From Psammoneis japonica (Eukaryota): 64,000 nt of DNA. The DNA lies in the NCBI GenBank assembly GCA_008632985.1, contig QPGO01000017.1, forward strand, positions 1 to 64,000. Reading direction: 5' to 3'. The stretch's first letter is position 1. Every line of letters begins with the position of its first letter. The notes beneath the pieces are model-generated. The model saw only the letters and a list, made by a program, of their open reading frames with translations. It did not search any database and was not told the origin of the DNA. Position numbers and translations under genes: made by a program. This document shows positions 1-22,068 of this stretch, one piece after another.

Positions 1-891
1 CGCGGTACTGCCTGGTATTAAACATGGAGCTTTCAACAATAGTGTCGATCCAATCATTGATGTGTCGTGCAAAATCATAATGAAGCCTTTGATTGGCGGG
101 GTTGTTGCAGGTAAGAGAAGGATCCAACTTGACCAAAGTGCAATCGACCTTCTCCTCCTTGATGTTTTTGGCTTGGTCTTTCTTTGGCAGCAGTACGACG
201 TTTCGTATTCGTATTCTTTTTGGTACCTGCATTCGCATTCTTGTTGGCGGCGCGTTTCGTCATGGCTCCAAGTGCGTCACTGGCTTGGTCTTTCTTTGCA
301 GCAGTACGACGTTTCGTATTCGTATTGTTTTGGGTACTAGCATTCGCAGTCTTGTTGGCGGCGCGTTTCGTCATGACTCCAAGTGCATCACTGGTTACGG
401 TCTTTCTTTGCAGAAGTACGACGTTTCGCACTCGTATTCTTTTTGGTGCCAGCATTCGCAGTCTTGTTGGCGGCGCGTTTCGTCATGGCTCCAAGTGCGT
501 CAGCAGCTGAAACGCAGAAGACGTGGCGGTTGTTTCGTCAGCTCATTGCCATTGGATGAAAGAAACAACACTTTGACATTATCCTGACGCTTACCTTTCT
601 TTTTGTTGTTGCTGGCGGCGGCGGGTTTGCCCCTTACTTTCAGATTGGAGCGAGGCGAAGCGGAATAACTTGGAGCCTTTTTCTTCGAAGGATCTTCTTC
701 ATCATCCGATGAAATAACTATGACCTCCCGCAAGAAGGTAATTTCTTCGTCACTGGATGGGTAATCGTCAGACGACTTGTGTTTCTTGGAGGCAGCGGGT
801 TTTCTCGTCGGAAGACGACTCTTCATCGTGGGACAAAGATCGATCACGACGCTCTTGTTGACTGCATCACTCATGGTTTGATGGTTTGCTC
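1..891 (-). pseudogene. Partial intron-containing K/S/D-rich gene or pseudogene with a 37-aa tandem repeat; runs off the window edge
   Basis: Acceptor TTTGCAG at ~892; exon MSDAVNKS...KKK; GTAAGC..TTTCAG intron 594-507; then repeats (DALGAMTKRAANKxANAxTxxNTxxKRRTxAKKD) with two +1 indels (~397, ~187); frame open again from ~170 to 1 (KNIKEEKVDC...TRQYR). Confidence 0.4.
170..502. repeat. Tandem repeat, ~3 copies of a 111-112 bp unit
   Basis: Anchor CATG(G/A)CTCCAAGTGC at 261, 372 and 484. Confidence 0.9.
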
Positions 892-2834
892 CTGCAAACA
901 AAAAGTAAGAACAGAAAAGTGAGCAGTCATGAGAGTAATGAAATGCAACAAGACAGCAAAACGCATAGGGCCTAATGCATTGTCAGCGTTATGAGTAGCT
1001 GAATCGCTTTTTCCCTGGAGTGCCGAGAAAGTGTTCGCGCCGTTTTCCTACTACTAAATTTGGAATTGGAAAATGAATGATGCAGAAAGAAAAATTTCAA
1101 ATAACATGTAACTATTCATGCTCTATATAGTCTATATTGATCGCAACGGATTCTATCCGAAACACGGGCATCCGACAGACGAAACACGTGGGATAGAAAT
1201 CACCCCAGTTTGGGATAGAAAATATAATGTTTCTGTGAAACCGAGACCGACAGTGAACGAAGTAAGCAAAACCGTTTTCTGATTTCAGGGTTATAAAGAA
1301 GGATTTCAAATCGGACGTGACTGACACACAACTGCTCTGGAAGCGCCACAGAGGTATTGCTTATTTGCCACCGACGCCAATCGAGTCACCAACGTAACGC
1401 CGACACCCGACACCTCACACTCACACTCACACCGATGAACGATGAGCCGCCGCCGCTCAAATTGTGAGCGCGAGCGCGAAAAGCGAAAAGGCCACGCACG
1501 CGATGATGCAGAATGGGCAGTCGGATCAGTCAATCAACATGCGTTAGACTCGTGACTGAGTCATTGAAGGGTGCAATCCACCCTCCAAGCGTCCCAAGTT
1601 GGCCGCACCAATGCTCAGGGAATACATTGCCAAGCTAGACCCGTCACGAAGCAACAGCCACACCAATCGTGGAGTCACATTTTTGCCGGATGTCAAGGTC
1701 GTGAAAAAAGTGGCAAAGAACAGTGGAGCTCCCACTTGGAGAGAAAGCCTCACCGTGGCTGACGAAAGTTCATTGTCAACCTTGCTCTTGACTTGAACTG
1801 TGACTTGCCTGACCACAATCACAAGCTTCTCATGGAGGAACACAAGATTGATCACGCAGATCATTGTCACCATGAGCGGGATGACCAGGCCCGTTTGGAA
1901 GCATTTCGTTTGCATGGGAACAAGGAACATTGCACAAAAGGCACTGTGTGAACACACACATGACATGCCAAATTTTGAATTGCCTGCCTTGGTCATTTTT
2001 GGGTTGGGATTGGGGTGCCATTGACTCTTGACCAAAGAGCTGGCTGTCACTCTGTTTTTGAGGCAATCAACAACAAACATTTGAGCACCAGCTGTTTTTG
2101 TCGTTCAACTGTTCGTCCCTCACATGTGGACAATGTGGTGTGTTGGGGCACTTGTTTTCCATTGAGATGATGGGTTTTTGGGTGTTGTGGTTTTGGTGTG
2201 CACAAGCTTGCTTTCAAACTGGCGATCATGCATGGACAACTCAACCCCCTTTGTTTCTGCACCTGACAAGGACAGTTGCACAATGCAAGCCCAAACAGCT
2301 GCTGTGCTGTTGGGGGGTCAAACCAATGTCTGATGTTCAAAACCTTTGGCAGCAATGCCTCACATTGTCACATGCAGCAGGAGCCTGCCAAGAGCCCTCT
2401 TGGAGCCCTCTTGTGTGCATGAAGTGACCAAGGAACTTGTTCATTCAAGTGACAGGCCCTTTGTTTTCCTGCCGCCAAGCTTGTCCTCATTTTTCTGGAG
2501 ACAAAGAGTTGTTTCTTGTTGTCACTCTAGAAAGAACTGCGTGAACCCATTTGTCTCTGCAGTTGGGGTTGATGATGCAACCAGGCTCTCTGTTGTCCTC
2601 CTCCCTGGAGCTTGTGTGCAGTTGTTGCACTGTTGCACAAAACCAGGAGCTGAGTCACAGCCATCCTCCAACCACCAATTCTTGGAGTTTTCTTGTCTGT
2701 GAAACCCATTGCAGGGAGAGGAAAGTTGACAACAAGAAATGTCTCCTTCCTCAGAGCCACACAAAATGGATCCCCCTTGCCTTGCTTTTCCTCATGCCTC
2801 AAGACAATGAACAGCCATCCACCAAAGTGTCCAA

Positions 2835-2896
2835 TCTGTCTGTCTGTCTGTCTGTCTGTTTGTTTGTTTGTCTGTTTGTCTGTTTGTCTGTCTGTC
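2835..2896. repeat. Compound (TCTG)n/(TTTG)n microsatellite
   Basis: Directly visible tetranucleotide run. Confidence 0.95.
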
Positions 2897-3539
2897 CATG
2901 TTGAGTCTTCCCACCACTCACATTGGACCAAATTGTTGGAGCTTGTGGCTCAACAACAAAACAAAACCCAAATTCCATGTTTTGGGTGCTGTTGCACTTC
3001 CATCCTGCAGCTCTGGCAACAAGCTGGCCTGCACCGCCCAGCACACAATTGGCGCAGCAGGGGCACGACCATTGTGTGGCAACCTGTGTCGGCAACCGAT
3101 GCCAGGTGGTGCCATGTTGAAACAACTGGCAATGGCATGAGTGCCTCTCACAGCAAGTTGTTTGGCTTCCTGGATGCTGGACTTAAATGTGGGATGCACC
3201 ATGGTCAACCAATTTTGCAGCCCATGGGTGGAGAGTGAGTCAGGTCGTGCTCATCTGCCGAGTCATCAAACAAAGTGCACCTTGTCTTTTGCCAAGCAGT
3301 CGTGGACTCATGTGCCAAGTGCCACCAAAAAATTCAAAAACTTACATCATCATGAGCAAGCAAAGCAGATTTTGATCATTTTGTGCAAAAAATCAAGCAG
3401 ATTTTTTACTTGTCTCAAGTGGATTTTTGCAGGCAATCTTGGTGCAGTTTGCAAATTGCTCTGGCTGGATGGAAGAGAAAAGAGTGAAGATTCTGACTTG
3501 AAGAACTGAGCAAGGCACCAAAAACCATCTTTTTGACCC

Positions 3540-4960
3540 TTTGAAGATCTGCAAGGAAAACCAGGGAAAACTTTGAGAATGGTGGCCAAGCTTGTCTGCA
3601 GCGCCGCTCCCCAGCCACGTCATTGACACCAGAATGAGAGCAAGAAATTGGCAACTCCAGAGTGAAAGGGCACCCTGATGCAACCAACCAACCCAACAAC
3701 TCCAGGCTGAGGGCATTGAAGGAACCAGAGGAACTCAGGGAACACTTTGAGAATGGCAGTGGAGTGTTGCAAAGCTCATCTGGTGCAGCTGCAGCTGCCA
3801 GTTGCTCAATCTGTGCCAGAGTGAGTCCTGAAACTCGCGATAAACCCATGGTGAAAGAACACCATCATGCAACCAACCAACCCAACAATTTCAAGCTGAG
3901 GGCATTGAAAGTCTCTTGTGGAACCCAAGGAACACTTTGAGAGCAGTGGTCAAGCATTGCAAGGCTCATCTGGTGCAATTGCAGCCACCAGTCACTTCAT
4001 CCATGCCAGAGTGAGAGAGCTGAAATTCCTGACTTCAGAGTGAAAGAATCCCCTTGTGCAAGCAACCAACCCAACAACTGCAAACTCAGGGCATTGAAGA
4101 TCTCCCATGGAACCCAGGGAACAGTGCATGGAGATCACTTCATCTGTGCCACAGTGAGAGAGCTGAAACTCCTGACTCCAGGTTGAAAGGACACTCTCAC
4201 TCAGCCAGCCAACCCAACAGCTGCAAACTCAGGGTGCCAACGATCTCCAATGGAGCCCAGAGAACATGTTGAGCTTGTTGGCAGAGTGTTGCAACAGCAC
4301 TCATCTGGTGCAGCAGCTGCAGCCCCCAGTCACTTCATCCATGCCAGAGTGAGACCTGACATTCCAACTGCTCCAGAGTGAAAGAACAGCCTGGTGCAAC
4401 CAACCAACCCAATGAGTGCAGGCTGAGGGCACTGATGGTTTCCAATGGAACCCTTCAAAACAGCAGTGGAGTGTTGAATCATTGTTGAGCTTGCAAGTTG
4501 ATGTTGCCAAAAGAGAACTGTGCAGGGCTTCCTGTGACACTCATCATGCTTGCCCTGGATGCCATGTTGGCTGTGGTTTGCCTGTTGTCACAGAGTGGAG
4601 TGTGTGCTGACAGATCAATTGGAGATCAACAAACATCGCTTGTTGTTGTTGTTTCACCAGATGATTCACTTCAAAGAGTGAGCACAAAAGGTTGGTGAGA
4701 TTGTGGTCAATGACAAAGGACATTCTTCATGGAACAGTCGTTGATGATCACAACTCCAGAGAGTGAAAGGAAACCATGATGCAGCCAACAAAGACACCAT
4801 CTGCAGACTGAGGATGTGTTGGTGGAGTTGGGTGGAACCCAGGGAACACTGTGAGAAGAGCTGTGGCTGAGCACTGCAAGGCCCATCTGGCATGCACCAG
4901 TTGTGTGGAGCCAAGTTTTTTCATTGCCACCACCCAGCCAGAAGAGAGAGTGAAACTTCA
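3540..4960 (-). repeat. Degenerate ~189-bp (63-codon) tandem repeat, at least 6 copies, probably once coding
   Basis: Anchor AACCCAA at 3690, 3879, 4068, 4211 and 4406, plus a degraded copy near 4780; minus strand reads ALSLELLGWLVASGCPFTLE. Confidence 0.8.
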
Positions 4961-7900
4961 AGCTCTCCCACAACCCATGTTGTCACAGATGGTGGAGAGT
5001 CATCAAACAATGTGATGGGACAAATCAAACATGCCCCAGATGGTCATCCACATTGCCAAGCTGAGCAAGGGACAAAATTGAAGGTCATCCTGGGCTTGCT
5101 TCCACCATTTCCTCATGTTGAGAAAGTTGCAAATGAGCACTTTGGCATGGCTGGACAGCCATGGGATCTTGAACCACCCTTCTTGTGTGGCGCACAACAG
5201 AGAAATGGCACCACAGACATGCACTGGGGGTGGGGGGACCTTGTGGGCCCAACATGCACAGTGGAGTGGAAGGGCTCTGGATGAACAAAATTGGTGCACT
5301 TTGCTTTCACACATCTCAGTGCAGTGGAACAGGACAAAAAATGTGCTTGCAGTTGCTGTCCTTGGCATGTCTGGCCCAAGACAGAAAATGCTTGCACAAG
5401 CTGTGTAAAGATGATGCTTCACTGTCATGACAAACAACTCTTCCTCTGCAGGATCATGACTTGTTGGCAGAGTTTTTTCTTGGAGGCTGGGAGGCTCCAA
5501 AAGCTGGGCTTCTTCCATCTTCTTTTTGATGGTCTTTGAACCCTCAAGCCCTTCCCATGCTGCATGCCAAGAAGATGATCTTGGCGAGTCATGAGCCTGA
5601 CTTGGGGATGGTGACAACTTGTTGCACCATCATTTTGTCACATCGTCTTTCAGAAGAAACATCTGTTGAGTCTTCTGGTGACAATGGTCAGAGAGACGCA
5701 ATCAACTGTTGGTCCAACTTGTCACTCAAACCCAAGTTAGAGATCATCTTGCAGTTCTTTGCATCTTTGGCATGCCTCATTGTCCCCTGCTGCATCTGTC
5801 ATCTTCAGTGCTTTGGCACACAACCTCAAAAGAGGCACGCCCATTAGATGCAGCTGTTGTTTAGCCCACTGCCCAGACCCACCCTCCCTTTTCCTGCACC
5901 TTTGGGTTGACCTTTGTTTCCCAACACATCTCAACTGTGTGAGCAATGGTGCTGGCATGAAGGGCTTCAAATGCTGAGATTAAGGACAAAAAACCAGAGA
6001 AAATTAAGATGCACAGAAGGGGTGTGCAGGAGCCAACTTGAGTGTCAACTTTTTGACCACCCACGCAGCAAAACAGAGTCAGCCTTCTGCAAAGCACCCA
6101 TTGTGACTCTTTCAACGCCAAAGCAAAAAAGGCAAGCTGCACTGACAAACATTGTTTTTGTGACACCACAAGTCCACACCAGTGCTTGATGCTCTGGCAC
6201 ATGGGGATTGCACACAACATCACTGGCATTGAAGACACACTGCCACAGAGTCACTCAACAAGTTGATGGTCATGACAATCACAAGCACAATTTACATGAA
6301 TCTGGCTGCTCATTGGGATGTGAGACACAAAGTCAAAGTTGTTTTCAGGTGGCCGGCAATGACAGCAGTGGTTTTTGTCTTGTTGCAGCACCCTTTGCTG
6401 ACACAGATTGATCATTTCCACTCTCGGAATTGTGCTTTAAGAATGTCCAAGTGAGAACAAATCTTGGATTCATTGCATGATGCAGTGCAGATGCAGTGTG
6501 ATGCATGGAAAACAGAGCCAACTCTGTGAATCATTGAACTTTTTGAAAGACAAGAAATCCAGACATTGTGATGCTCCATTCCAGACACTTGAGCAGTGTC
6601 ACAGTCATCTGGGCATGGAGCAATGGCATCAAAATGGGCATGGGTTCCAAAGCCATCAGCAGACACTGCAAGTTGCAGAGGTTGGATTGACAAGCTTTTG
6701 ACAAGCTTGAACAAACACTTGTCAACATGCAGTTTCGTCTCTGGCAAAACATTGCACATGATGGCACAAACCCTTGTCCACCACAAAAGCAATGTCGGTT
6801 GGAACAAAAGCCACATCACCCAACTCAACTTGATCACCATTCCATTTCAACAGATGAAGCAGGCAAAGCAGTCATTGGCAAAGGAATCCACAGACAACAT
6901 GACAAAAGGAAGCAATGTTGGCGCTCCTTCGAAGCATGCCCGTGACAAATTTTGTAAGCATGACTTTGGCATGTTGAGCAATGACACATGACAACCCAAA
7001 CCATGGACTCCACACAATGCTGCAAACTCCTTCTACTTAATCCAAGTCTGTCAAAGTGTGTCCAAAGCCCATCCAAGTCTAATCTGGCTTCAGGCAATGC
7101 ATTGGTGACAATGGATTGTTTTGTCTGCTTTGACATGGGGTGGGCTAGAGTCTTCTGGGACCTTGCTGTCTGTCTGCAATGCTGACTCTCCCAAGCCCAA
7201 TTGGTGTGTTGGTGTGTGTGGCCCACCAGCAAACTCCACAGTCTGGGTGACAGCTGGGGCAATGACATCTGCCAAGGGACATGGCAATGCTTCTCACATG
7301 CAAGCCGAGTCATTGCAAATCGCAGCCACAATTTCAAGTGGGCAACTCAAAGCCCAGTTCTTGCTCTGCTCCAATTCATTTCAAGTTGACCCATTCAGAC
7401 CACCGGCTCTGACTGGTCTTTTCATTTCATTGATTGAACAATCAAGAGTTGTTGCATCATGAAAAGCAAGATGCATCAAAGGACATCATTGGCACGGTTT
7501 CGTGCAGTGCAATCAAGAATTGAGACCATTGCTTGAAGTGTTGACCATCTCCTTGGTCAGTCATCACAGACTTTTGGCTCAACTTGGCTGTGGATGGCTC
7601 CAAGAGTGTGCTTGATTGCAACAAGGTGGCACCAAACAGCAGCAGAAATGCACTTCTCATCCCCACAATGCTGCTGCAACTGGGGCCTGTGGCAGCACAT
7701 CATGGTGGACCTGTGGCACTGGCCAGCAGGTGAAGGTGAAGAGTGACAAATGTGCGACCTTTGTCACCCCAATCCACCGTCTCACTCAACCGGTCCTGCT
7801 GCCTCAACCGGTCCCGCCGGCTGACCGATGGATGCTTGCTCCACTTGAATTCCAAGTGCCGCTGCTCTGCAGCATCAACCCCACAGCACAATGACAATGC

Positions 7901-9669
7901 AAGATGCCGGCAGTTTGTTCTTCCTGATGGACAAGCGACACAATCATGCCACTGGAGAAAACTGCAATGCCAAGAGTCATGCTGTCACACCTCCAAAGAA
8001 TGACAAAATGCCACAAGTTGTTTTAATGGATTGTCAGGCTTTTCGTCATTGACGGAAAATGCCAAAAATGCCGCTGCGAGTAGAAGGTCACAAATGGACA
8101 ATGCATTCAACAGTTTGCTTGATGCTTCCACAGTTGCTTCATGGATGCAAGACCAGGACAATGTGTTGAAAAACATTCAAAACATTTTGACAAGCAGGAG
8201 GAAAGCAACCAAGCCGAAATTGAAGGAAGCCAACAACCAGCTGGCATTGGTGTGAAACAGCCTCTCCATTTTGCAAGCAACGACAAAAGGAGCAACTGTG
8301 ACTTGAGCTGGGACCCAGAGACAAATGGTGTCCCTCTGCAGCTTTGACAGCTGCTGTCTCACACACATTGTCCTCCAGTGGTGTGAAGCCATCTACAAAT
8401 GGGTCAAAAAGAACAATGAGCTGCATCAGTCTCAGTGCTAAAAGAGGATGTGTTCTCAAGCAGCACTTGCCTTTTTGCACCAAGTCCCAATCAAAAGCAG
8501 TGGCACTCTCCACCAGAGAGTTCATCCCACAACAGTGGAGACTTTTGCACTTGGGCCGGTGCCGGCTCCCTGCTTCTAGCAGAGAGACATCTTTCCTGTG
8601 TCTTAGAACAGCCAATCGGCAAGTCATCATTCAAAATGGTGAAGTGCGCACACACTCTGCAGCACGCATGCGGTGTGCACCGTCCAGAAGCAACAGCACT
8701 TGCACCTGCACTCCATCCCACATGTTTCATCAAACAGTCACACATCTCTGCCAGAACGACTGGGAACTGAGAGCTCCAGGATCTGATTTCCCCACATGGG
8801 CAAAGAATGTCAAAAGATGTCTGTCATGTAGAATGTGGGCCTGGAAATGCCGCTGCAAGTTTTGACAGTCAACGACATTCACACTGGAAAATGACAGGCA
8901 AAATGAAAATGTGAGTGGAACAACGCACACAACAACAATTCATTGGGGTTGCACACAACAGTGTGCTCACTGGGAGCACCTTTTAAAGGCAAAGCTGAGT
9001 TGCCTTGCCAATTTTTATGCTTCCAAGTAACATCAGCGGTTTGTGGCATCTGTGCATTCAAGAGGAGGCAATGCGCCCACCAACACAAGCCTCGACCTTT
9101 CCCATTTTACCCATTGAAAAGCATGGAGTCGCAGTTGCACCACAAAGATCTCCCAAAGTAACATGGACAACATCACATCTTAGACAATGATGACAATGTG
9201 GTTGAAGGGCAGGTGGAAAGGGTCAAAAAGGACCAGATGCCCACAGGCATGATCGAGGCACACCAAAAAAGGCTCCTGACAAGGTGTGCAAGTTTCTCAT
9301 CAAAACGAGTCCAAAACTCAATCAATCACAACATGCTCACAGGGTTGCCTTTTTTGGACTGTGGCAAGGCTGTCTGACAAATGCCAACATTGTGAGTGTC
9401 CCCGAGACTCCATCGCATCATTTTGTTCCCATGGCGTGCACTTTCAAGAAATTGTTTTTGCCAAAAAATGACATGCTGTGACTGCGAGCCAACCAAGACC
9501 TTCGAAAAACATTCAAGCTTGTCACAAGTCCAAAAAACTGCACAAATGGATGAAGCAAAGGATGTGGATTAGGATGAAGCACAAGGCTCCCAAATGGACA
9601 GGCTTTTGTGATGATGATGATGATGTGAAAAAAAACACCCAAATCCATCAAATGAAAATCGACCACATG

Positions 9670-11700
9670 AAATGATGCGCTCACCGTTCAATCTTTGACA
9701 AAGCCCAAATGACCTCCACTCCACCAAATGAGCAAGTCTTGGCAACAACAAATGCCACTTCTGAATCTTCTGCAGCTGACTCCGGATTGCCAACACCATG
9801 GTCACAACCAACTCGCTCTGGTCACAAAATCCAAATGATCCAAAGGGCCATTGAGTCACAACTTCAACATGAACAAAACATTGTCTCACAAGCTGCAACT
9901 GCTTGTAAAGCCATTGCCCAGGACATGTGTCTCATTGACAATGACTGAAATCAACTCCAGAGGATCCCATTTTGCACAGCACCATGTGAAGGCTTCCAAT
10001 GACCCGGACACTTGTACATGCACGAGGCTCTTTGCGAACCAGATGCTCACAAATTCAACAAAGCTGTGGTTGAAGAAGCACAAGACCATGCCGACAGGAA
10101 GCATTGGCAAGCTGCTGAAAAAGCTGATGCACCCCAGGGTGAGACCATTCTTCCTGCAACATGGTCTGTGAAGTGCAAGCAACGCATGGCAACATGCAAA
10201 GTGTGCAAGTGGAAAAGCTGACTCAATTGGGAGGACACAAAATGAAGAAAGGAAAACACTGCAAGGAAACCCATGCTCCAACACTTTCTTGGACTGTTGT
10301 CCATCTGTTCCTCATCCTCTGCATCCTCTTCAAATGGAAATCAAGACAAGTTGATTTTGTGCTGGCATGTCCACAATCCACATGCTGACATTCCAAGGCC
10401 CACCTTTGTGGAATCACCAAGAGACATCAACTTTCCCAGTTTGGATCACAACAAGCATTGCTTGGAGACATTGAAAAATGCATGTGGTGGAAAAGACGCT
10501 GGGTGAATGTGGTTTGCATTTTTACGAGGCATTCTGCTTGACATTGGTTTTACACAGTCTTCATTCAACAAATGTGTTTTCTGCCGTGGTGCGATGACAT
10601 TCCTGGTGTGCACCAATGACGGTCTTACATTCAATCCCTTGGATGCTGAGATTGATCAATGCATCAAAGACCTCGGCACACGCACACACATTTCTGATCA
10701 AGGCAATGTCAGCCACTGCCTCAGCATCAAAATCAACCACAACTTGTTGACAGCATTCTCCAAGACCTTGGTCTCATTGGCACTTGCAACAACTTGAATT
10801 CAAACACTGCCAAAACACACAAGCTCCCAGCAAGCACTGCAAAACTTGTCGGACCCGATCCGGTTGGTGCACCTTTTCAGGAATCATGGAACTGCTGCTC
10901 TGTCATTGGAAAATTGAACTTCTTAGAAAAGTCAACATGCAGTGACATTGCACATGCTGCTCACCAATGCACCCGCTTCATGTCAAATCCAAAAGCTTCT
11001 CATGGCGCCGCTGTCAAGCACATTGGATGACATTTGCTCGCAACCAGAAATGAAGGATGCATCATCAAACCAGACAACACACATGGCCTTGATTGCTTTG
11101 TGGATGCTGATTTTTGTGGCAACTGGGACAAGGCTGTCACAGAAAATTGTCCTGATGCAGCACACTCTCATTCTGGTTTTGCTGTCAAATTTGCAAATGT
11201 GCCCCTGTGTTGGGCTTCCAAGCTGCAAACAATGTTTGCTCTCAGCAGTGCAGAATCTGAATGCATTGCTCTCTCTAAAGCTGCCAGACACGTTAAATCC
11301 ATCATGCACCTGTTGAAAGAACTCAAGGAGAGAAACATGAATGTGAGCGCTGCTCCTGTCATGCATTGCATGATGTTTGAGGACAACTCCACCGCACTGG
11401 AGATTGCACGTGCACCCAAGATGCACCTGACACTCAACACTTCAACGTCATGCTCCACCACCACTTTCACAATGAAGTCGCCAATGGCTGCATCCGAGTT
11501 CAACCCATTTGCACTGCCGATCAACAAGCCGATGTCTTCACAAAACAGCTGCCTGAGGAGACTTTCTACAAGCTCTGTCATTTGCTTTTCAGCTGGTGAA
11601 TGACCCAGCCATCTCATTGAATGATGAGGCACTCCTGGCTTGGGAGGTCTGCAATTGGTGCGGGAAGAAGAGTGCCGGCAAGAGCGAATGAGGGAGTGTG
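9670..11700 (+). mobile_element. Decayed Ty1/copia (CoDi-like) LTR retrotransposon pol, RT-RNaseH portion
   Basis: Motifs DPDTLYMHEAL, ETHAP, RQVDFVLA, FLVCTND (=YxDD), SVIGKLNFL, CFVDADFCGNW, WASKLQT, ALSSAESECIALS, FEDN, QQADVFTK; stop at 11597-11599; PPT-like GAGGGAG then TG at 11690-11698. Confidence 0.92.
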
Positions 11701-11938
11701 ACTGTTGATCTTGTTCATGCCTCACGACATCTATGACATTTGATTTCTATGGCCCCAAATTGTTTGCTCATGTGGCACACAAATTGTTGAAGACATCTCA
11801 AACATTTGTTGGAAAACACTTGTTGAGACATCTCTCTTCTCACCTTTTTGAGATTCAAAGCAATCACAATCAGTTTGTCTGTGTTCATCACAAGGCCAAT
11901 TGTCCGTTTGGTTCTTACTTTAAACTGTTTGCTCACAG

Positions 11939-12170
11939 TTGTTGCACATGATGGGTTGCAAAATGGGTGTGACGATTGGCAGAATGCCAAACAAGTGTCA
12001 CCCAGAAATGGCTGGGGAGGGCATTGAATGTTCTTGGGGACTCGCAAAGCAGCGTTGTTGTTTGCAACCTTTGTCAAGAAAGAGGGGAAAGCAAAACTTT
12101 AGAGAGTTGGTGCAAGAATCAATGTTTTCAACTGCACTCATGATGGACAGAAAAAACGCCCCTGACAGAT
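11939..12170 (+). mobile_element. Fragment of a DDE (IS630/Tc1-mariner-like) transposase
   Basis: KCHPEMAGEGIECSWGLAK...KRGKQNFRELV resembles the PKxHxELAGEGIEYSWG C-terminal catalytic motif. Confidence 0.65.
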
Positions 12171-13044
12171 TGACTGCGATGGCATTGAACAACACACCAA
12201 GCTTTGAACAACTTGTTCAGCACATTGGCAAGCTCAATGAGAGGGAGTCATCATGTCATCGTTGCAGCAACACCACAACAGATTGAGTTGTTCCGACAAG
12301 GCAGCCATGTTGGCACAGGCTTCTGAGGAAATGCAGGCTTTCTCGCCTGGCACTTGCAATGCTTTGAAGATTTCTGAATCAAAGAAGAATGACCTGGCCT
12401 GGAAAACTTGTGAGAAGAAAATGAAAGAAGAACAGAAGGATTCTGTGATGACTGCTTTGCAGCATGCGATTTCCAATTCCGGCAGTGTTCAGGTTGATGT
12501 CAATGGCAGTGTGTCAGGTGGCACCTCACATGTTGCCAGATGTTCTGGTGTCACCTTCATCGCTGGTGAGAATGTCAAGTCCGGAACCACCATCATGGAC
12601 ACAGTAGAAGAGAACTCATCTTTGTCTTCACACAGGAAAAAAAATGGCTGATGACGAAGTGCCGGAGCTGCAAGAGGAAGACTCACTCTACTCTAGAGGA
12701 CCAGAGGGCCCCAGCTGCTGGCTGTTCACACTTTCAACTTCGACCATAACCACCATGCTACCCCTGCCTATTTTCTAGAGAGAGAGCAACTGAATGTATC
12801 ATGGTAAGTTTCTGAAACAGATACACGCCCACAGCAAGGAAGCAGAAACAAAATAAATTGAAAACAGTAGCCTGATTTCAATATCTTGTTTTACTTCTAC
12901 TCGGTCGGGCTGTAGCTATGGTAGCGTTTTCTCTGATTTATCGATCAAGGTCGTTTGAAACAACACCGTTTTTTTTTTAACACATTAACACGTTTAAGAT
13001 ATGATCAGATTAAGAAAGGAGGCGGTAAAGGTTTGATGACCTCA

Positions 13045-14688
13045 TCATTTCCCGCACATAACGGTTAGGATCGACTTTTTCATTACGACAATCAGCTTGT
13101 CAATATCTTTCTTTGTGTGAATTGCAGACACTGTCATTCGCAATGCTGGCGCAGGGATGGTGTGCATGTGGCCTACTACATGTCGACCCGTCGACACCAT
13201 GGCTACTCCGTTCTTCAAACAATCTTTTGCAATTGAGTCGAGAAGGGCAGTGTTTTTGTCATCATCATACACGTCCTTCTCTTCAGGAGATACTTCGAGC
13301 ATGACAATGGGTGACCGGTCGTCACTCACCAGTATCAGAGTGTCTTGCTTTATTGACGCGACCATTGCGGCAAGCTGCTCATACAGGTATCGTTTGTTTT
13401 CGTTGAGCTGCTCAAGAAGTACGGGACGACTTTGAATCTGTTTCAAAGCAGCCATGGCGGCAGATGCAGTGAACGGCGGACAAGAGGCACTGAAACAATA
13501 CCCTGCGCCACTCAGTCTCTGATGATCTACGACTTCCTCATTCCCGACCGTCACTCCCCCAATACTCCCCAAGGAGTTTTCAAGGCTAATGGTAACAATC
13601 TCTGCGTCGTACATGTGCTTCTTTCCGTACAGTTCTAAAACACCACGTCCATTTTTTCCCAGTGTCCCGAATGAGAACGATTCGTCCAGGATAAGTCGGT
13701 AGTTGAATTCATTCTTGAGGTCAACAAGCTCGGACAATGGTACAATAGTTCCAAGATTCTTGTAAAGACCTTCCACAACGATGAAACGTCTCTGGTCACT
13801 GGGTTTTCTACCAAGGCGCTTGTCCGTTGATTTTACAGTCTCTAGCACCCTCCGAAGATCTTCCATATCATTGTGTCGAAACCATTTAACATTGGCGCGA
13901 CTGAGACTAACTCCACTCACAATCGGTTCGTACACCCCCTCGTCAACGACGAGCAGATCGCCACGTTTAGCAAAAGCTGCAATCGTCGACGTCACAGTAG
14001 ATGCACCGTCCGAGTACATGATAGCTCCCTCTGTCTCTGTAAATTTCGATATTGCTTCCTCGAGCTGCAGATGCACATCGATAGTTCCATAAAAGCCCCG
14101 AGGACCGCACGATCCGCATCCATACGTTGATAGAGCCTCCTGTGATGCATCCTTGATGTATTTGCCAGGTCCATCCTTTTCATCAGCAAGACTAGTGCAC
14201 GACATACCTAGGAAATCGTGCGTGGCAAAGTTCAGCACAGTGCGTTTCTTCTTGGATCCATCGCAATCTTGTATCGTCATGGTCCGTCCGTTAAGCTCAT
14301 GAACAATAACGTTGGAACCCAGATGTGGAATTTGTGCCGCCTCCTGCTCCTGTGGCACCAGTCTTTTCCGACCACGCTCACGCCATTCCTCAATGAGTTC
14401 CTCCTTTTCGGCCTCGGTCAATTTTTCTCTTTTGTCGCCTCTCCATTCCTTGCTCTGACTCACAATAATGTAGATGATTGACAGAATTAGCGTTGTCTCG
14501 ATAAACACGTGAACTGGATCGTTGGTTACGAGGTTCAACCACCAGTTCTTATAGAGCGAAGGAATATTCGCGACAGAACGCCACATTTCAGAAACAGGTG
14601 GAAGATCAGGCACGGTGTGATTTGAAAGCAGCTTCTGGACGGTTTGACCGGCGCTGTACCCCAGTGAATAGATGTTAGGAAGTAACAT
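13045..14688 (-). CDS. LCB1: Serine palmitoyltransferase subunit 1 (LCB1/SPTLC1)
   Basis: 547-aa ORF; N-terminal TM segment; YGCGSCGPRGFYGTIDVHL; LILDESFSFG; ISLENSLG lacks the PLP lysine, as expected for LCB1. Confidence 0.93.
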   Translation of the reverse strand: MLLPNIYSLGYSAGQTVQKLLSNHTVPDLPPVSEMWRSVANIPSLYKNWWLNLVTNDPVHVFIETTLILSIIYIIVSQSKEWRGDKREKLTEAEKEELIEEWRERGRKRLVPQEQEAAQIPHLGSNVIVHELNGRTMTIQDCDGSKKKRTVLNFATHDFLGMSCTSLADEKDGPGKYIKDASQEALSTYGCGSCGPRGFYGTIDVHLQLEEAISKFTETEGAIMYSDGASTVTSTIAAFAKRGDLLVVDEGVYEPIVSGVSLSRANVKWFRHNDMEDLRRVLETVKSTDKRLGRKPSDQRRFIVVEGLYKNLGTIVPLSELVDLKNEFNYRLILDESFSFGTLGKNGRGVLELYGKKHMYDAEIVTISLENSLGSIGGVTVGNEEVVDHQRLSGAGYCFSASCPPFTASAAMAALKQIQSRPVLLEQLNENKRYLYEQLAAMVASIKQDTLILVSDDRSPIVMLEVSPEEKDVYDDDKNTALLDSIAKDCLKNGVAMVSTGRHVVGHMHTIPAPALRMTVSAIHTKKDIDKLIVVMKKSILTVMCGK

Positions 14689-15129
14689 GACAATGTCGCG
14701 ACAGAGAAAAGAAATGGCACGTGCTTCCAGGATTACGCCGCAACGGCAACCGACTATTGAACAAAAAGGATGGGAATTGCTTCCTTAAGCCACCTTCAAA
14801 GGCACTCAGTATGGCAATGCTGGGTGCTGAAGATAGCCGTCACCCGTCACCGTCAGTCACCTTTGCACGGGGCTTTTTGACGGAATTCACGTGCAACGTC
14901 ACCTAGAGTGGCGCGGGGGGAGGGGCAGACGCGGAGCAAGGGCGGAACTAACTGAGTCATGCAGGTAGGAAAAGGGATGGATTTCGAGTTGGGGTTGGAG
15001 AGTTGGGATTGTAGTTTGGTGGAGTAGCGGGTCAATTGGTCAGCGAGTGATTTAGTGATTGCAAGGCTCAGGCTTTGGAGACCCCCCACTGTGATGGGGT
15101 GGAAGCGTGGTGGGTCAAGTGTCATCCAT

Positions 15130-18100
15130 TGTTTGCGTTGCTGCCTGCATCATTCTGCGTGGGATGTTTCATTGTGAAATTTTGGTGCAGGCTGGTGAAT
15201 CTACATTTCCAATGTCAATTGAAGGATAAATGGTGTGATTGAAGTTGAACACATTTTCTCAGAGGATTCGATCATCACACGCCCACACGACAGATGGCGA
15301 CCAAACCGCCCCGCCAGCGCCCACCCTTTGTCATCCGGAGACACAGAAGCTCACGCAAAGATTGGGTGCCAGTTTACCACACACCAAATGAAGAACTTTG
15401 TGAGGTTGTGTCCAGAGAGACTGGACAGTGGGGGGGGATTCTTGTTCACAGCCTTGTCCGTCAATGACCCACTGGTGTGGGTTGTGACTGTGACTGTGGC
15501 TCTCTACAATTCAGCTGGATTGGCGGAGATGAGCAATGTTGTGCACCACGGCAAATGCCATGATTGCAAAGGCAAAGTTGAAATTGAGTTGGCAAGTTCA
15601 ATGATCTATCCTGCTGCCGCAGCCAGCAGCGCATCACCCAAAAAGGGCGTTGCTGGCACTTTGATTTGAAAGGGAAGGTTGCAGCTCCTTGCAGTTTTCT
15701 GGCACCTGCAATGCTTTCCAGAGTGCTTCCCAAATTTCCTTTTGGCACAACTCAGTTGACTGCAAAATTATGTTGGTGCTCACAGCATTGCTGTGGTGGG
15801 TCTTGGCCTGCTCCTCTTGTCACCTCAAGTGCCGCCAAGCTGTCAAGAGGCTCTTGTGGTTTCCAAATTGTCATGGTGGCATTGATTGCTTCCTGCTGAG
15901 CCTTTTTGACATCAAGCAGCTTTGGAGTGATTCAGATGTGAGGCAGCCCTGTCATTTTCCATGCCCCCATCATCACAGCTTTGTCACAGCAGAGCTCAAC
16001 AAGGCTCCTTCTGACACTGGTGTGGTGCACACTCTGGCGTGTTTTGCATGATGACTCGCCTCAACAGAAAACACCCCCAATGGAGCTGCGCTGCTGTCAC
16101 TTTGAACTTTGCTCTGACTCAATGGCTGGTCTTGGCTGCTGTGCAGCTGGAAACTTTCAGGATTTTTGGAATTTTTTGAGTTGGGCTGGGGCACAACTCT
16201 GCACACAGAACATGCCAGCCTCTCTGCAACTGTGCTGTTTTGTTGTGCCAACAGCAGGAACAGTTGCGAGGGATTGTTGCACCTTCTTCCTTGTTTGTTG
16301 TTTGCAGCCTCTGGTGTGGGGCATGCCAAGAAAAGAAGTGAGCAAGAACCCCAAGGTTGCTGCTGCCACCCACTCTTTTGTGACTGCAGCTGCTTTGTCC
16401 TCTTTTGCTGCTCTTGCTCACTTGAGGTGGGATTTGCTGAAGCTCCTGTTTTGCTGTGGGCTTCATTTCTCAGCAGCAATGAACAACAAAGATGGTGTTG
16501 CACTTCATCATTTTTGCAGTTTCTTTTGCCAGTTGACTGCACTCATTGTTGTGGTGGAAAGCAGTGCTGCACTGCAACTTCCCTGGAGGATGACAAATCA
16601 CAGTGCTCAAAGACTGGTGGTCACTCACTGGGCTCCAAACAAATTTTCCTTTGCTGCACTGCACTGCTGCTGATCTCACTCTGGTTTGAAGGGTCCACAT
16701 GCAAGAATTGCCATTGCTTGGCAGCTCTGTCTTTTTTGGCAGTGGCAGCTTCTCCTTCCAAGATGACAGTGACAGCAAACTTTTGCTCATTCTGTTTTGC
16801 CTTCTTTCCTGGTGTGATTTTAAGAAGCTCCCACCAGCAACAGCAGCAGTGGAAGGAAAACAACAGAAGTGGTGTCATGAGCACAATGGAGGTGACCATG
16901 GTTGCCAGCAGCACAATGCCTGCAGCTTTGCTTCAAGATCCACCACCTGCTCTTCTGTGTTGGCAACATCCAACTGGGCTTCCACATCATTTGTGTTCAT
17001 TGCAGTCTTGTGCAGGTGCCTGTGAAACAGGCTTCTGCAGCAAAGGCACATGCAGAGTCAAGGCACTTCTGCTCATCATCCAACAACAGGCTTTTTGCAC
17101 AAATCCTTGCTGTCCTCTTGCAGCTCTTGCACCTTGGAGAGAATCCAGCAGTCTTTTGCAATGAGTCATCAGCAGCCTGAGCTCTGGCTGAGAGTCAAGG
17201 CAAAATTTTTCTGTGGAAACTTTGGCCTTCTTGCTTGATGACAGCCTTTTCTGCAGCTCAATCTTTTTGGCAAGCTCCTCATTCTTGATTTTCAATTTTG
17301 TGATCTTGGTGTGTGTGCCATCTGAGGGTGCACTCTCCAGGCGTGACCTTGTTGGTGGTCTTGAAATGCATTGGAGCAATGACAATGGCATGCAGAGCAG
17401 CCTGGTGCTTGAGAGCCAGACTCTCCAAAGGCCTTTTGCTGATGGGAGCTGCGCAAGCTGAGGGATCATCTGATGCAAGGAGGGCAATCTTAAACAAGGC
17501 TGGTGCACTCCAGCCCCTGCCAGGAAGGACTCTGAGTGACACAAGCCTGCAGAGGTCTCCTGTGCACTAGCTCCACAGCTCACACACTGGGCAATGGATG
17601 CATCACATTTGTCTTCAACATCTTTTGCAGTGCCATCACACCTCTTCATGCTCAAATGTTTTTGTGGTCCGTTTGTGCCAGGTGCCCCCCCCCCCCCCCC
17701 CCCCCCAACATCAAAGAGAACCACTTTGCACCAAAACTGTCAAAAAAGTTGTTGAATGGATCAACCAATGAGTGCACTGCAAAGTGATGCAAAATCAATC
17801 TGAAATGTGCACACACAAGCCAACACGTGGCACATGATTCAAAAAACCGCAACATCACAACCGAGCAGTGTGATGCCCTCGCTTGTTTTGCCCAGAGCTG
17901 GAAGATGCTGGCTGAGGAATGCAGCCTGGCTGGTCTTTTGTGACAGGCTCAACAATCACATGCTCATGCAAAGTTTGGCTGTCAGATCAAATGATGCCAC
18001 ATCAGGGGTTGGGACTGCAGGATGCAAAGAGCCCATCTGTCAAACAGATTGATGTCAGCAAAATGACAGCAACACAAAACAATGTTTTTGGCACACCAGC

Positions 18101-21100
18101 AGCCCACTGTGGGGCATGCTCATTCCAGCCCCAGGTGAGCACCTCTTGGCAATGCCACTTTTGAACAGATGTCTCATGTTCTTCATCATGTGTCAAGAGC
18201 TGAGTGTCAACAAAAAGCTTGAAAGGGCTGGCTTGCAATTTCTTGAAGTGTGTGAGCAAGTGTGTTTTTCTTCAATCTCCAAGAAAGCCCTCATTGCACA
18301 TGTGCTGCATCATTGTGTTCATCCTGAGAGTCCAGACTGATTGAGTTGGCATGACACAAGCATTGTTTGCACAAAGTGCCCCCACAGGCATGGAAAAATC
18401 ACCACACAATGATGGCAAAATGACACGGCAGCCACATGCGTGGCTGGAGCACATCTGACTGCTGCAACATGGGCCAAGAGTGGCAACAGGCAAGCAACCT
18501 GTGGGTGCTGGTGCAGCACTGGTCTCTGGACACAAGCTTGCTTGCACATGATTGCACATTAGAAACACATCTGTTTGAATGACAAGCTGCACTGCAACAC
18601 CCGCACCATTGGCAAATTCTGAAAATGAACATTTTTGCACACACCAATGGCAAGAAAGCCAGGTTGTTTGTGGACAAAGACATGACCATCAACTTTTTGC
18701 ATGTGCAATTTGTCATGGGCTTTGCTGAGGTTTTGGCCACCAATCAAGAGAAACTGATTGGTCATTGCTGGTGAGCTGTCAACTTTGACTGACAATTGAA
18801 AGAAGCACAGATGCATCTGCTGATGCATCAAGCTTGAGAATGTCTGCAGACATGCTCCATTGTCATCATGTCTGACCTCTCATCACAGCTCAGCTGGGGC
18901 TGATTGACTTGCTTGCTTTCTTTTGAACAGCCATCAACTTTGATTTTTCCAGCACATTTTTTCTTGCTTTTTTTTGCCAGCACAAACCTGGTGGACAGCT
19001 GTTGTTGATCACTTGACATTTTTCCACTCATCAGATTTCAAAGATGTGAGTGAGCACACCTGCAGCAATGAACATTTGCAAACAGCATCATTCAACTGCC
19101 TGCTCTTTGCAGTTTTTGAGGCAGCATGCTTGTGCAGGAACCCTTTTTGGAGTTTCAGCACTGGCATGGTCAATGGCCATTGAAGTGGTGCATGCTGCTT
19201 GGCATCTCATTGCATCTCAGGTCATCCAGCATCTGCTGTGCCACAGCTTGCACCATGAGCCAGCAAGATCAGCACTTTGAGCAATGCAAATTGAGTGCTG
19301 CTGAAGCTGACATGATTGAAGGGGTGTGGCAAATGATTTGATGAAAGAGTTGTTCTTTCTGATGCACCCAGAGTGCAGCTCTTGTTTGAAAAAAAAAAAT
19401 GGTGGCCTTGTTGATGCACCACACAAAATGACAGCAGCTCTTGTCTCACAAGAACATTGGTGGCAGAGAAGCCATTGGGTGATGGAGCCTTGTTGATGCA
19501 TCACACAAGATGACAGTCATGATGACTGGGCTCACAAGAATGAGAGCAAAACCCAGGTGGAACAAAATCATGTGTTCCCCCATCCATGTGGGGATGACAA
19601 ACACAATGGATCTGAGCAACAAAAGTGCTTGAAATTGCAAGGTTGCAAAAGGACAAAACAGCTCACTCTTGCCTGCTGTTGACAGAAGAATTTTTTGTTC
19701 AAAAAAAGTGAGAAAAAATCACATCATGTCATTTGGAAGTGACAAATGGGTGGTCAATTTTTTGTTCAGTGTTTCTTCTTGTTCCCCTTGCACAACTTAG
19801 TGCAACCCCCCATGCTGAAAGCTGGGATGATTGCACCAAAACAAAAAGCCATTTGCACTCATCCAGCCTGCACACCAATGCAACACCTCACCCAACCCAT
19901 CATCTTGATCCCACCATCACCTCTGCCACCACCAGCCACAGCCTCTCTCAGGTGACACAGGTGCACTTCCTGCAGATTTTGTTGACCACCTCCTCATCTG
20001 TGAAACCCAGAGAATGCGGTGCTGAGGAACTCAACACAACTGATTCAAGCCACTTGGGAGAAGCAACAATTAAGGGCCAAGTCTGTTTGTGAGACTCTGC
20101 TTGTTTTGTGCCACAGTCCTCCTCTCACCTGCTGACATCTCACATTTGATCTTCTTCATTCAAGGATGAGTTGCAACAAAGAGGAGTGGCTCAGGAGTGC
20201 ACCACACACAATGCAGAGGCTGACAATGATGTGACTGAAACAATGAATGTCAGTCAAGGAGGCTCAACAACCACTGGTTGCACCCAAGATTTGCTTGACA
20301 AGCACATCCTCATGCCAAGAGAGAAAAGACTGGCACTTGTCAATGGCTCAAAAACACATGACATTGATGACCAATGAGTGGCCATTGGGTGGCTTCCATT
20401 TGGGCAGGATTGCCTCCCAAGCCAACAGCAGCAATGATGCAATTCTGTCAACGACTCTTTTGGACACTTCAAAGTGTCTGGGGGTGAAGCACAAGCTGTG
20501 CATGAAGTTCAGCCCCAGGCAGCTGGACATGTTGTTCTTGCATCTGGGGTTGGAAAACATCATGCTCTTCAATGAGCTTCCTGCAGATGACCCCACAAGT
20601 TCTGCAAATGGCACAAGAGAGTCTAACCCTGATGGTTCTTGCTCAGCATCTTTGCTGTGTTCTTTGATTTTCAAACAAGCAGCCCGCAATGTGCTGTCCA
20701 TGAATTCAAATGTCCCTCTTTTTGGAAAACCCTCCAAGAAGTGACCCCTCCTTGATGACTTCCAACAAGCAAGCTCACACCAGGGCAGCTCAAGCTGTGG
20801 AACAGAGCCTGTCCAGCCTTCTCTGGCTCCTGAAGCTCTCTCCTCCACCACCACCTTGCTTCCAGCCTTGGCCAATGACAAACATGGTGAACATGCACCT
20901 GAAACTCATGGATGTGCTGCTGCCACTCCACCCTGGCTGTGGCTCTGGAGAGGGTGTGATGACTTGAGGTCAGCTGGGTCAAAAGGTGATGCATGCCTCA
21001 GCGCACTTCTTCTTTGAGAGAGGAGGAGGAGGAGGTTTTGAGGTCAGCAACAAGTGATGGTGTTGCCTTTCAAGAAGGAAAGTCGATCGCTCTGCACATG

Positions 21101-21910
21101 GCGCCTCTTGCTGGCATGTGTGCAGTGCACTCAGCTTTTGACACATTCTTTCAAGATGAAAGCAAAGAGCAAATGGGAAAACAATGCATCAACAACAAAT
21201 GCCCAGTTTGTTTGCTTTTTCCATCAACTCGGCTGCCACTTTGGGTGCTCACTTGTTTGGAAACAGTGCATGATGTCGGGAGCTCCCACCGAAGATCCAT
21301 GAACCACTTGATTGACAAAAGTGGCGCCACAAAGGCTTGACACAGAAGGAGCCACCCCAACAGTGGGCATGTCAGAAAAGCAAAAACAAAGTGATGCAAA
21401 CAGTCCCTTGTCACCAATGGAGCCACCCACCAGCTGGTCTGAAGATTGCTGCACACACTTGCGCCAGCGAAAAATCCCACATCCATGCCAGCTGCATTTT
21501 TCTGGTGTCTTCAGTCATTTGCAATGGGGACACTTCATTCAAGGCAATAAAAACCTGTTTGTGTTTACACCCAATCATGCCAATCTGAAATGACACCATT
21601 TTGCAAAACATGGGAGCCGACCAAGAGCCTCTCTCTCTCTTGGCTGCACTTGACAATGATGCCGGCGCTGCCACCTGTGCAAGAGAGAGAAAGCAATGAT
21701 GTGATGACAGCATTGTTTTCAATGATGAGGAACTGTCTCGTCCCACATCACTGAAATTGCACTCAAAATGAAACACGACACTTGCCACCACCATTGAGAA
21801 CAAGGCTGACATCTGTCACAGCAATGCCAGGGCAGCTCCAGCACACTTTTGAAAAACAGACTGGTCAATCTTGTCACACCGATCCACCGCACTGATGGCA
21901 TTCTCAACAC
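15130..21910. other. TpA- and CpG-depleted decayed-repeat block B (source elements not recognised)
   Basis: About 10 TA in 15800-21900 by manual count; ORFs in all frames are nearly Tyr-free and Cys/His-rich. Confidence 0.9.
17685..17706. repeat. Poly(C) tract, 22 nt
   Basis: Direct observation. Confidence 0.95.
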
Positions 21911-21926
21911 ACATACCCACGGTGGC

Positions 21927-21955
21927 TTGTTGTTGTTGTTGTTGCTGTTGTTGTT
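21927..21955. repeat. (TTG)n microsatellite
   Basis: Direct observation. Confidence 0.9.
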
Positions 21956-22068
21956 CATGGGTTGCACTTGGTGTTCACGTTTTGTTGTTGTGTCTCGAAC
22001 AAAATCGTGAATCTCCCTCCGACCGTACAGGCGGACGGACGGATTTTTGTTTCTGAGATAGTTGCGTT

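Follow-up and report, generated by a model that had tools for sequence, protein, structure and literature searches.

What could leave a retrotransposon with cysteine or histidine where its relatives have tyrosine, and with cysteine, histidine or stop codons where they have arginine? This question is raised by a copia fragment in the diatom Psammoneis japonica, located within the first 64,000 nucleotides of contig QPGO01000017.1 (assembly GCA_008632985.1); this whole stretch is the DNA analysed, and is referred to here as the window. A sequence-only reading of positions 9990-11599 had proposed that replacements of this kind in the reverse transcriptase (RT) and RNase H are systematic and fix the direction of mutation, and that a strand-symmetric process striking TpA acted on DNA and not on the element RNA. 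We find that the fragment lies in one of four sharp-edged blocks in which TpA and CpG have given way to TpG and CpA on both strands, that single transitions at its conserved codons fall largely in these two contexts, and that the loss of TpA is separable from the loss of CpG. The probable explanation is that these blocks were struck in place by CpG decay together with a TpA hypermutation of the type seen in the alga Bigelowiella natans, here in a diatom and on a retrotransposon.

Tyrosine and arginine codons in the copia fragment

The interval 9990-11599 falls within a degenerate Ty1/copia pol fragment (Table 1), and all seven motif changes noticed in the sequence-only reading are present in its RT and RNase H. 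The RT catalytic motif reads CTND, with the Tyr to Cys change compatible with TA>TG and the Asp to Asn change compatible with CG>CA spanning the codon boundary. In the relatives the first position is Y in 69/75 and the third is D in 72/75; the second residue is T in 24/75, although T is second in six of the nine closest relatives listed, and YTDD is thus taken as the form of this clade. The other motifs are ETHAP (CAT at 10272, with Tyr in 16/16 relatives), VFCRG (changed codon at 10582; Tyr in 39/73), NCCS (10893, Tyr in 123/132; 10896, Arg in 100/132), IAHA (10953; Tyr in 80/146), ECIALS (11262; Tyr in 114/143) and AG*MW, in which the stop is a TGA at an Arg column (Table 1).

These individual motifs reflect a general pattern. 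We defined a conserved column as one in which at least 50% of at least 10 aligned relatives share the same residue, and there are 302 such columns, of which 198 are kept and 104 changed. Only one of the 16 conserved Tyr columns is kept, the others having become Cys (6), His (4) or Phe (5). Among the 20 conserved Arg columns six are kept, and the remainder are His (4), Cys (4), stop (3), Gln (1), Lys (1) and Asp (1). The five Tyr to Phe changes are transversions and we count them as lineage variation, since the intact relatives show the same variation to Phe. When the 104 changed columns are classified by the simplest nucleotide change, 38 are single transitions within TA or CG: twenty amino acid changes fit loss of TpA (TA>TG 16, TA>CA 4; ten of the 16 conserved Tyr columns now have Cys or His), and eighteen fit loss of CpG (CG>TG 7, CG>CA 11). 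The rest are other transitions (9), transversions (30) and columns requiring two or more changes (27). The substitutions are not independent of context, as TA or CG contexts account for 38 of the 47 single transitions, where 22.0 would be expected if context were irrelevant (binomial 1.7e-6). The dinucleotides themselves are correspondingly scarce in 9990-11599, with 8 TA against 62.5 expected from host frequencies (Poisson 4.8e-18) and 28 CG against 93.8 (Poisson 1.5e-15). Over its 600 codons the fragment has just 2 Tyr, together with 33 Cys, 35 His and 5 in-frame TGA; the medians for the relatives are 3.3% Tyr, 1.9% Cys and 3.4% His.

Six intact relatives provide a control. They keep the conserved Tyr in 13/20, 16/21, 16/21, 18/21, 16/21 and 12/14 columns, and their replaced Tyr columns contain no Cys and a single His. 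Arg is kept in 26-30 of 30-32 columns, and in 16/17 in the shortest. Because the intact relatives keep Tyr and Arg, the possibility that active elements themselves carry Cys or His at the changed positions fails, and the proposed direction of mutation, with Tyr and Arg ancestral, is supported: these relatives have Tyr or Arg where the window has Cys or His, and Cys, His or stop, respectively. All five in-frame stops in the fragment are TGA. Whether reverting TG and CA would restore an open frame, a check that the sequence-only reading had proposed, was judged by counts, and it could not; three of the five TGA codons are at conserved Arg columns, but the frame cannot be reopened in this way because there are also four frame changes due to insertions or deletions.

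Identity of the fragment

A frame map, built by setting the window translation against the consensus of relatives, divides the fragment into five segments (9790-10225, 10233-10376, 10378-10738, 10740-11423 and 11426-11596) with the four frame changes between them. A phmmer search with 10740-11600, read through one TGA, against a library of 1.84 billion representative proteins gave a best E value of 4.7e-71, with 183 proteins at E<=1e-30 and 12,465 at E<=0.001. One of the top matches is P0004, a full-length polyprotein of 1348 amino acids with 50% identity and the Ty1/copia domain order (gag_pre-integrase, integrase SH3, RVT_2), whose residues 753-1340 align by tblastn to window positions 9811-11572 over three frames. 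PF07727 is present in P0004 and in the two other relatives tested, P0041 and P0058, which are described below. On the raw window translation the Pfam RVT_2 match is weak (E 0.0028, 17.7 bits against a gathering score of 31.6), and a six-frame Pfam search over 1501-13004 found nothing else.

Upstream of 9630, tblastn with the N-terminal 800 residues of nine full-length relatives gave no trace of integrase or gag at E<1. Self-blastn in bases and a search in a purine/pyrimidine code that ignores transitions revealed no pair of long terminal repeats bracketing the fragment, which is thus a 5'-truncated relic. It also lacks the features of an active member, with YxDD reading CTND and the pol frame closed by the five TGA codons and four frame changes. 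Judged by its sequence, it appears to be an old, inactive, 5'-truncated Ty1/copia RT-RNase H fragment in a diatom chromosome. The named relatives of the clade are diatom proteins (from Fragilaria, Attheya and Epithemia). The label 'CoDi-like' for this clade is provisional and follows the 'CoDi' of the sequence-only reading. A diatom setting is also indicated by the flanking serine palmitoyltransferase gene, whose best named relatives are from Nitzschia, Cylindrotheca, Fistulifera and Seminavis (49-59% identity; best hits overall 61-64%).

Four blocks depleted of TpA and CpG

The recognisable copia sequence is only 1.8 kb of a much larger hypermutated region. We found the blocks using per-kilobase dinucleotide ratios and a density scan, and placed the edges of TA loss and of CG loss by maximum-likelihood change points. 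There are four of them (blocks 1, 2, 3a and 3b; Table 1), and in their 23.2 kb there are 77 TA (observed/expected ratio, o/e, 0.05), 250 CG (0.18), 2566 TG (1.88) and 2715 CA (1.77). In the 37.1 kb of host DNA in the window the o/e values are 0.58 for TA, 1.00 for CG, 1.10 for TG and 1.12 for CA, and in host DNA outside of long open reading frames (ORFs) they are 0.78 for TA and 0.93 for CG; the loss in the blocks is therefore not a matter of genome-wide neutral decay. Arithmetic on the dinucleotide counts shows that the TA and CG deficit (~1920) roughly balances the TG and CA surplus (~2075), and GC content is the same within and outside the blocks, at about 0.48.

The change points are sharp, and the island of ~680 bp between blocks 3a and 3b (34312-34968), which contains a tRNA-His gene, has normal TpA and CpG content. 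Either old elements inserted beside the tRNA gene, or a locus transcribed by RNA polymerase III was shielded from the process. A mobile DNA origin is recognised only for the copia part of the blocks. Pfam searches of 38 stop-to-stop ORFs, taken from blocks 2, 3a and 3b and the remainder of block 1, gave no families at E<=0.01, and none of the 14 ORFs tested in block 2 has a Pfam domain.

Separability of TpA and CpG loss

Although the Tyr and Arg changes described in the sequence-only reading both stand, its treatment of them as a single process does not, because the losses of TpA and CpG are separable in two respects. One is at the edges of the blocks. At five of the six block edges the change point for TA falls 145-595 bp further out than that for CG; the left edge of block 1, for example, has its change points at 1400 (TpA) and 1765 (CpG), and the TpA-free zone of block 2 extends over 15055-22025. 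The other is in related elements. In P0041 only 2 of 19 conserved Tyr are kept (9 are Cys and 4 are His) and in P0058 none of 14 (6 Cys, 4 His), and yet Arg is kept at 21/23 and 15/18 columns respectively. These two proteins appear, from their residues, to represent TpA-type hypermutation without CpG decay. Both are copia RT proteins that were called as open proteins by gene callers in other public assemblies; P0058, whose named relatives are from diatoms, comes from a contig of a public run.

Survival of residual TA, scaled to host tetranucleotides, is greatest for TTAA (0.45) and very low for GTAC and ATAT (0.014), with ATAC/GTAT retained at 0 of about 129 host-scaled sites. A model with independent loss of A on the two strands, the rate depending on the base 5' of the T, gives exponents of 2.46 for A, 1.73 for G, 1.19 for C and 0.37 for T, and fits better than a single exponent (likelihood ratio chi2 78.4, df 3, p 7e-17). 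The residual TpA sites tentatively suggest that the process prefers its targets in the order ATA>GTA>CTA>>TTA. For CpG, survival ranges from 0.58 at CCGG to 0.08 at TCGA. The change of TpA to TpG or CpA cannot create a stop codon and eliminates TAA and TAG, and the blocks contain 33 TAA, 21 TAG and 604 TGA.

Strand symmetry and action on DNA

The claim that A>G and T>C both occur on the coding strand is borne out by the 16 TA>TG and 4 TA>CA changes in the copia fragment, and the process is strand-symmetric in the blocks as a whole, with TG and CA present in similar numbers and no strand-coordinated runs. A runs test on the order of TG and CA gives z of -0.5 to +1.2 across the four blocks, with native TG and CA diluting its power. 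A strand-coordinated, kataegis-like mode was considered and is rejected on this test.

Action on DNA, as opposed to RNA, is likewise supported, by the overrun of the CpG cores by the TpA-free zones, by the more than 20 kb that carry the signature and have no retroelement homology, and by a pair of direct repeats that has been resolved differently in its two copies. One copy of the repeat is in the core of block 3b and the other in the edge that retains CpG (Table 1); they are 86% alike in purine/pyrimidine code and about 70% alike in bases. Over 251 aligned bp there are 14 double differences between TG and CA, 10 sites with TG or CA in one copy and CG in the other, 1 site with TA against TG, 22 other transitions and 19 transversions. 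The TG and CA pairs would arise from the independent resolution of a single ancestral TA or CG in the two copies. At 8 of the 10 sites differing as CG against TG or CA it is the edge copy that holds CG, and TA is nearly absent from both copies. In the tandem array of block 1, the copies also differ largely by alternation of TG and CA, as judged by eye and uncounted.

Paralogues and sequencing runs

The stretch is present in three coded runs of one sample from one study, and no RNA run is listed among the holders of the stretch. One run, X1, has contigs with a word depth of about 55-62 that agree with the blocks and, at equal depth, with the single-copy gene beside them. Differing letters are few in records 1-5 (1-3 per 0.8-2 kb) and more frequent in records 6-8 (7-9 per 0.9-1.4 kb). 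This match rules out sporadic error, although it lacks independence because X1 is possibly the source of the assembly. Where the window and X1 differ at single-copy depth, five of the eight sites (1624, 3056, 4638, 5868 and 12868) have TA or CG against TG or CA; these could be allelic or between-culture polymorphisms from a process that is still active, or polishing errors.

X1 also contains contigs that are 80-95% alike to the window, many of them at high depth, and these differ from it mainly by transitions (A>G 188, G>A 221, C>T 168, T>C 188, with each transversion type at 21-30). In the 40 paralogous differences listed, from a total of 1028, the window has TG or CA where the contig has TA or CG in 25 cases and the reverse in 4, and so there are less-mutated paralogues in the same genome. 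In another run, X2, examined over positions 1-20000, a single contig of 1800 bases matches the palmitoyltransferase gene with short flanks, and 15342-20000 is not covered; very deep contigs of X2 are ~88% alike over 6306-6477, 8680-8863 and 9348-9614. X2 resembles a transcriptome, in which less-mutated paralogues would be expressed, but the guess at its kind is DNA.

Relation to known systems

Fungal repeat-induced point mutation, known as RIP, is a DNA-level process in which dinucleotide-specific, strand-symmetric transitions wreck repeated mobile elements in place, and it can leak into flanking sequence. It changes CpA to TpA, enriching TpA, lowering GC content and creating many stops. The signature described here resembles RIP in being made of in-place, DNA-level dinucleotide transitions on both strands of mobile elements, but it differs in that TpA is depleted 20-fold relative to the base-composition expectation, GC content is unchanged, and the TpA changes are of a kind that make no stops. 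Editing by APOBEC3 and ADAR is similar in that deaminases make clustered transitions that inactivate retroelements, and ADAR favours a 5' U; these enzymes, however, have cDNA or RNA as their substrate while the element replicates, and give strand-asymmetric clusters, whereas the changes here are symmetric, without runs, and extend to sequence that is not retroelement. The decay of methylated CpG in vertebrate and plant transposons shares with the blocks the change of CpG to TpG or CpA, the conversion of Arg to Cys, His or stop, and the confinement to transposon blocks. It accounts for the Arg half only and cannot remove TpA, and the CpG o/e of 0.0-0.1 in several 1-kb bins here is extreme for a unicellular alga. 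In two diatom studies, CpG methylation of diatom LTR elements is reported (PMC2806351), loss of DNMT5a in P. tricornutum removes methylation and de-represses young transposons, and RID-related DNMT4 genes are described as widespread in diatoms (PMC9998398).

The closest parallel is in B. natans. According to the preprint by Mettrop et al. (bioRxiv 10.64898/2026.01.13.699255), 230 of 231 mutations in two integrated viral regions of mutation-accumulation lines were A>G or T>C, all of these at TpA; mutation proceeded at about 6e-7 per site per generation, with a subset of the lines affected; reverse transcriptase and DDE endonuclease domains were over-represented in TpA-depleted coding sequences; and the deaminase proposed is ADAT2-like. 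The likeness is in the change of TpA only to TpG or CpA, on both strands and confined to foreign or mobile DNA, and in a footprint of TpA loss with CpA and TpG gain that includes TpA-depleted ORFs with reverse transcriptase domains. There are also differences. B. natans is a chlorarachniophyte (Rhizaria) and the host here is a diatom (Stramenopila); its target is described as integrated viral DNA, in contrast to a copia retrotransposon and unidentifiable repeat blocks; and saturation is greater here, with a TpA o/e of 0.05 compared to a Rho of 0.45 reported for the nucleocytoplasmic large DNA virus region of B. natans. Its rate, given as ~1000-fold raised and episodic, was measured in lines, whereas ours is a footprint read from sequence alone. 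CpG loss accompanies TpA loss in the window, while the B. natans text, as available, mentions neither CpG nor diatoms nor copia. Full-text literature searches returned this preprint as the single report of TpA-specific hypermutation and nothing on the loss of TpA from the transposons of diatoms, and in the classic diatom copia paper (PMC2806351) the words 'dinucleotide' and 'mutated' do not occur.

Metagenomic copia loci

We surveyed 75 copia loci from metagenomes, found with the search patterns [AS][VI]W..RKR.. and FEDN.., which are biased against mutated copies. The three lowest loci, L012, L019 and L040, have a TA o/e of about 0.3 and a CG o/e of about 0.25-0.3. They were considered as hypermutated relics and rejected, as conserved Tyr is retained (22/27, 19/23 and 16/20, respectively) and Arg is kept too. 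They may be working elements with a milder avoidance, in which dispensable TA and CG have been shed under the same pressures, or they may reflect host composition.

Origin of the signature

We consider it probable that CpG decay and a B. natans-type change of TpA to TpG or CpA acted together in place, each confined to the blocks. The copia fragment would lie within a block of mobile element-derived DNA in a diatom chromosome, and after insertion the block would have been struck in place, on both DNA strands and nearly to completion, by two dinucleotide-specific transition processes. One would be the expected decay of methylated CpG to TpG or CpA, by which Arg codons (CGN) would become Cys, Trp or stop (TGN) or His or Gln (CAN); the methylation described for diatoms (PMC2806351 and PMC9998398) suggests that this component reflects 5-methylcytosine. 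The other would be a transition to G of the A in TpA on either strand, turning TAY into TGY or CAY and, where it spans codon borders, giving Met or Ile to Val, Lys to Glu and Thr to Ala. We infer that an enzyme drives the loss of TpA and that silenced mobile DNA is its target; most likely it is a polynucleotide adenine deaminase that reads each strand separately with the flanking preference given above. A more specific proposal, which we put forward only tentatively and think rather unlikely as a whole, is that diatoms have a dedicated genome-defence pathway deaminating A in DNA at TpA in silenced mobile-element domains, reading each strand on its own and with the same ATA>GTA>CTA>>TTA preference, distinct from but co-located with CpG decay, and homologous to the B. 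natans system.

Several points weigh against the two-process explanation. The direction of change is read from a protein consensus of relatives at no more than 52% identity, which is not the true ancestor, and from a partial table giving 40 of the 1028 paralogous differences, and neither an ancestor nor a close unmutated paralogue could be put into a DNA-level alignment. Block 1 lacks the TpA overrun at its right edge. The context model uses host tetranucleotides as a proxy for ancestral composition, and some of the residual TA may be new mutations. X1 may be the assembly's own source, and with one sample from one study there is no independent replication. Finally, the destructive pattern is seen in none of the 75 metagenomic copia loci, and none has a TA o/e below 0.30; this is weak evidence, since the search patterns demanded intact Arg-rich motifs.

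A single coupled process has some appeal as an alternative to two. The change of WA to WG is the signature of polymerase eta in somatic hypermutation, and deamination of methylated CpG followed by error-prone, polymerase eta-like patch repair could link the two losses, as could one deaminase acting on both A and C. The losses coincide in all four blocks, the TpA-free zones overrun the CpG cores as repair patches might, and ADAT2 enzymes that deaminate A and C in DNA are cited in the B. natans preprint (10.64898/2026.01.13.699255). We nevertheless think a coupled process improbable, as P0041 and P0058 have lost Tyr with Arg intact, the B. natans text in its available part does not bring in CpG, and single-substitution changes at TA-containing sites are transitions only. 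Polymerase eta should moreover deplete ApA as well, and it is rejected as a source because ApA and ApG frequencies are unchanged (AA o/e 0.92 in blocks and 0.89 in host; AG o/e 1.03 and 1.04). Editing during retrotransposition, by ADAR-like editing of RNA, deamination of minus-strand cDNA or both, fixed over many cycles, would suit the retroelement nature of the recognisable part of the block and the preference of ADARs for a 5' U (noted in the Discussion of the same preprint). It would not suit the presence of both A>G and T>C on the coding strand, the near equality of TG and CA or the absence of strand-coordinated tracts. A copy with lost catalytic residues, stops and frameshifts is incapable of continued cycling, the repeat pair diverged after duplication within the locus, the signature covers more than 20 kb lacking retroelement homology and overruns the block cores, and high-depth paralogous contigs of the same sample retain TA and CG. 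We regard editing of this kind as very unlikely.

Equally hard to credit is an origin without any targeting, either through long context-dependent neutral decay or through selection on element composition against UpA and CpG. The host TpA o/e is already below one, and the intact metagenomic loci L012, L019 and L040 are low in TA and CG and yet keep their Tyr and Arg, so that working elements do show some avoidance. Against this are the TA and CG of host DNA outside long ORFs (o/e 0.78 and 0.93), the sharp edges and the normal tRNA island. Transitions in other contexts number just nine over the 302 conserved columns with 95% of TA gone, an estimated rate ratio of ~100 or more, and the destruction of the catalytic Tyr and Asp is something that selection on a working element would forbid. 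Most improbable is an artefact of sequencing or assembly such as systematic miscalling at modified bases. The few full-depth differences between the window and X1 do include the five in TA or CG context, but contigs of 0.8-2 kb in X1 reproduce the TG- and CA-rich sequence at the depth of the flanking gene, the amino acid replacements obey codon logic over 600 codons, and similar Tyr-less copia proteins occur in other public assemblies.

Other features of the window

Coordinates are collected in Table 1. The island between blocks 3a and 3b also holds three copies of a TATAGCGTACATAG-like motif (34499-34600). Microsatellites are present at block edges, with (GTT)n at 21926-21956 for block 2 and (AAC)n at 33979-34024 for block 3a. 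At its left end the window has, in DNA of host type, a tandem repeat of ~112 bp (162-509) whose copies are 91-95% identical.

Table 1. Features of the P. japonica window
Feature	Coordinates	Strand	Remarks
Hypermutated block 1, ~10.8 kb	1856-12685		TpA and CpG nearly absent; holds the copia fragment, the tandem array and otherwise unrecognisable sequence
Degenerate tandem array, units about 143-190 bp	3598-4890		Within block 1
Degenerate, 5'-truncated Ty1/copia pol fragment (end of integrase linker, RT, RNase H)	9790-11596	+	tblastn, frame map, phmmer
In-frame TGA at conserved Arg column	10219-10221	+	Arg in 53/58 relatives
In-frame TGA at conserved Arg column	10504-10506	+	Arg in 41/71 relatives
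RT catalytic motif, YTDD to CTND (TGC ACC AAT GAC)	10609-10620	+	Compared with relatives' consensus
In-frame TGA at conserved Arg column	11028-11030	+	Arg in 117/150 relatives
Serine palmitoyltransferase gene, flanking host gene	13045-14688	-	Best named relatives diatom
Hypermutated block 2, 6270 bp	15619-21888		TA 10, CG 36
DNA polymerase eta/Rev1-like gene	24114-26096	-	IMS, POLH-Rev1 HhH, IMS_C; ordinary host gene
Hypermutated block 3a	31194-34312		TpA change point 31025, CpG change point 31205
tRNA-His(GTG) gene	34778-34850	-	Within normal-composition island
Hypermutated block 3b	34968-38195		TpA-free shoulder to 38475; CpG back at 38075
Direct repeat, core copy	36533-36800	+	Partner at 38037-38305
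Direct repeat, edge copy	38037-38305	+	In CpG-retaining edge; partner at 36533-36800

Implications

The same footprint in a diatom would show that TpA hypermutation is not limited to one species. It brings the TpA footprint to a major phytoplankton group for which genetic tools are available, and extends it to retrotransposons as well as viral inserts and to a setting where it is separable from CpG decay. The window also offers testable specifics, in the flanking-base preference, in a footprint that is wider than the CpG-depleted core, and in the spared tRNA island. There is a practical consequence for annotation. Long ORFs persist in wrecked elements, since TpA hypermutation does away with TAA and TAG and is unable to make stops, and gene callers then report 'proteins' that are free of Tyr and rich in Cys and His; these, as the RVT_2 score here illustrates, are nearly missed by Pfam. 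If a diatom pathway homologous to that of B. natans does exist, then TpA hypermutation would be an ancient trait of the supergroup of Stramenopila, Alveolata and Rhizaria (SAR), and it would be a mirror image of fungal RIP, erasing Tyr codons together with TAA and TAG and never creating stops.

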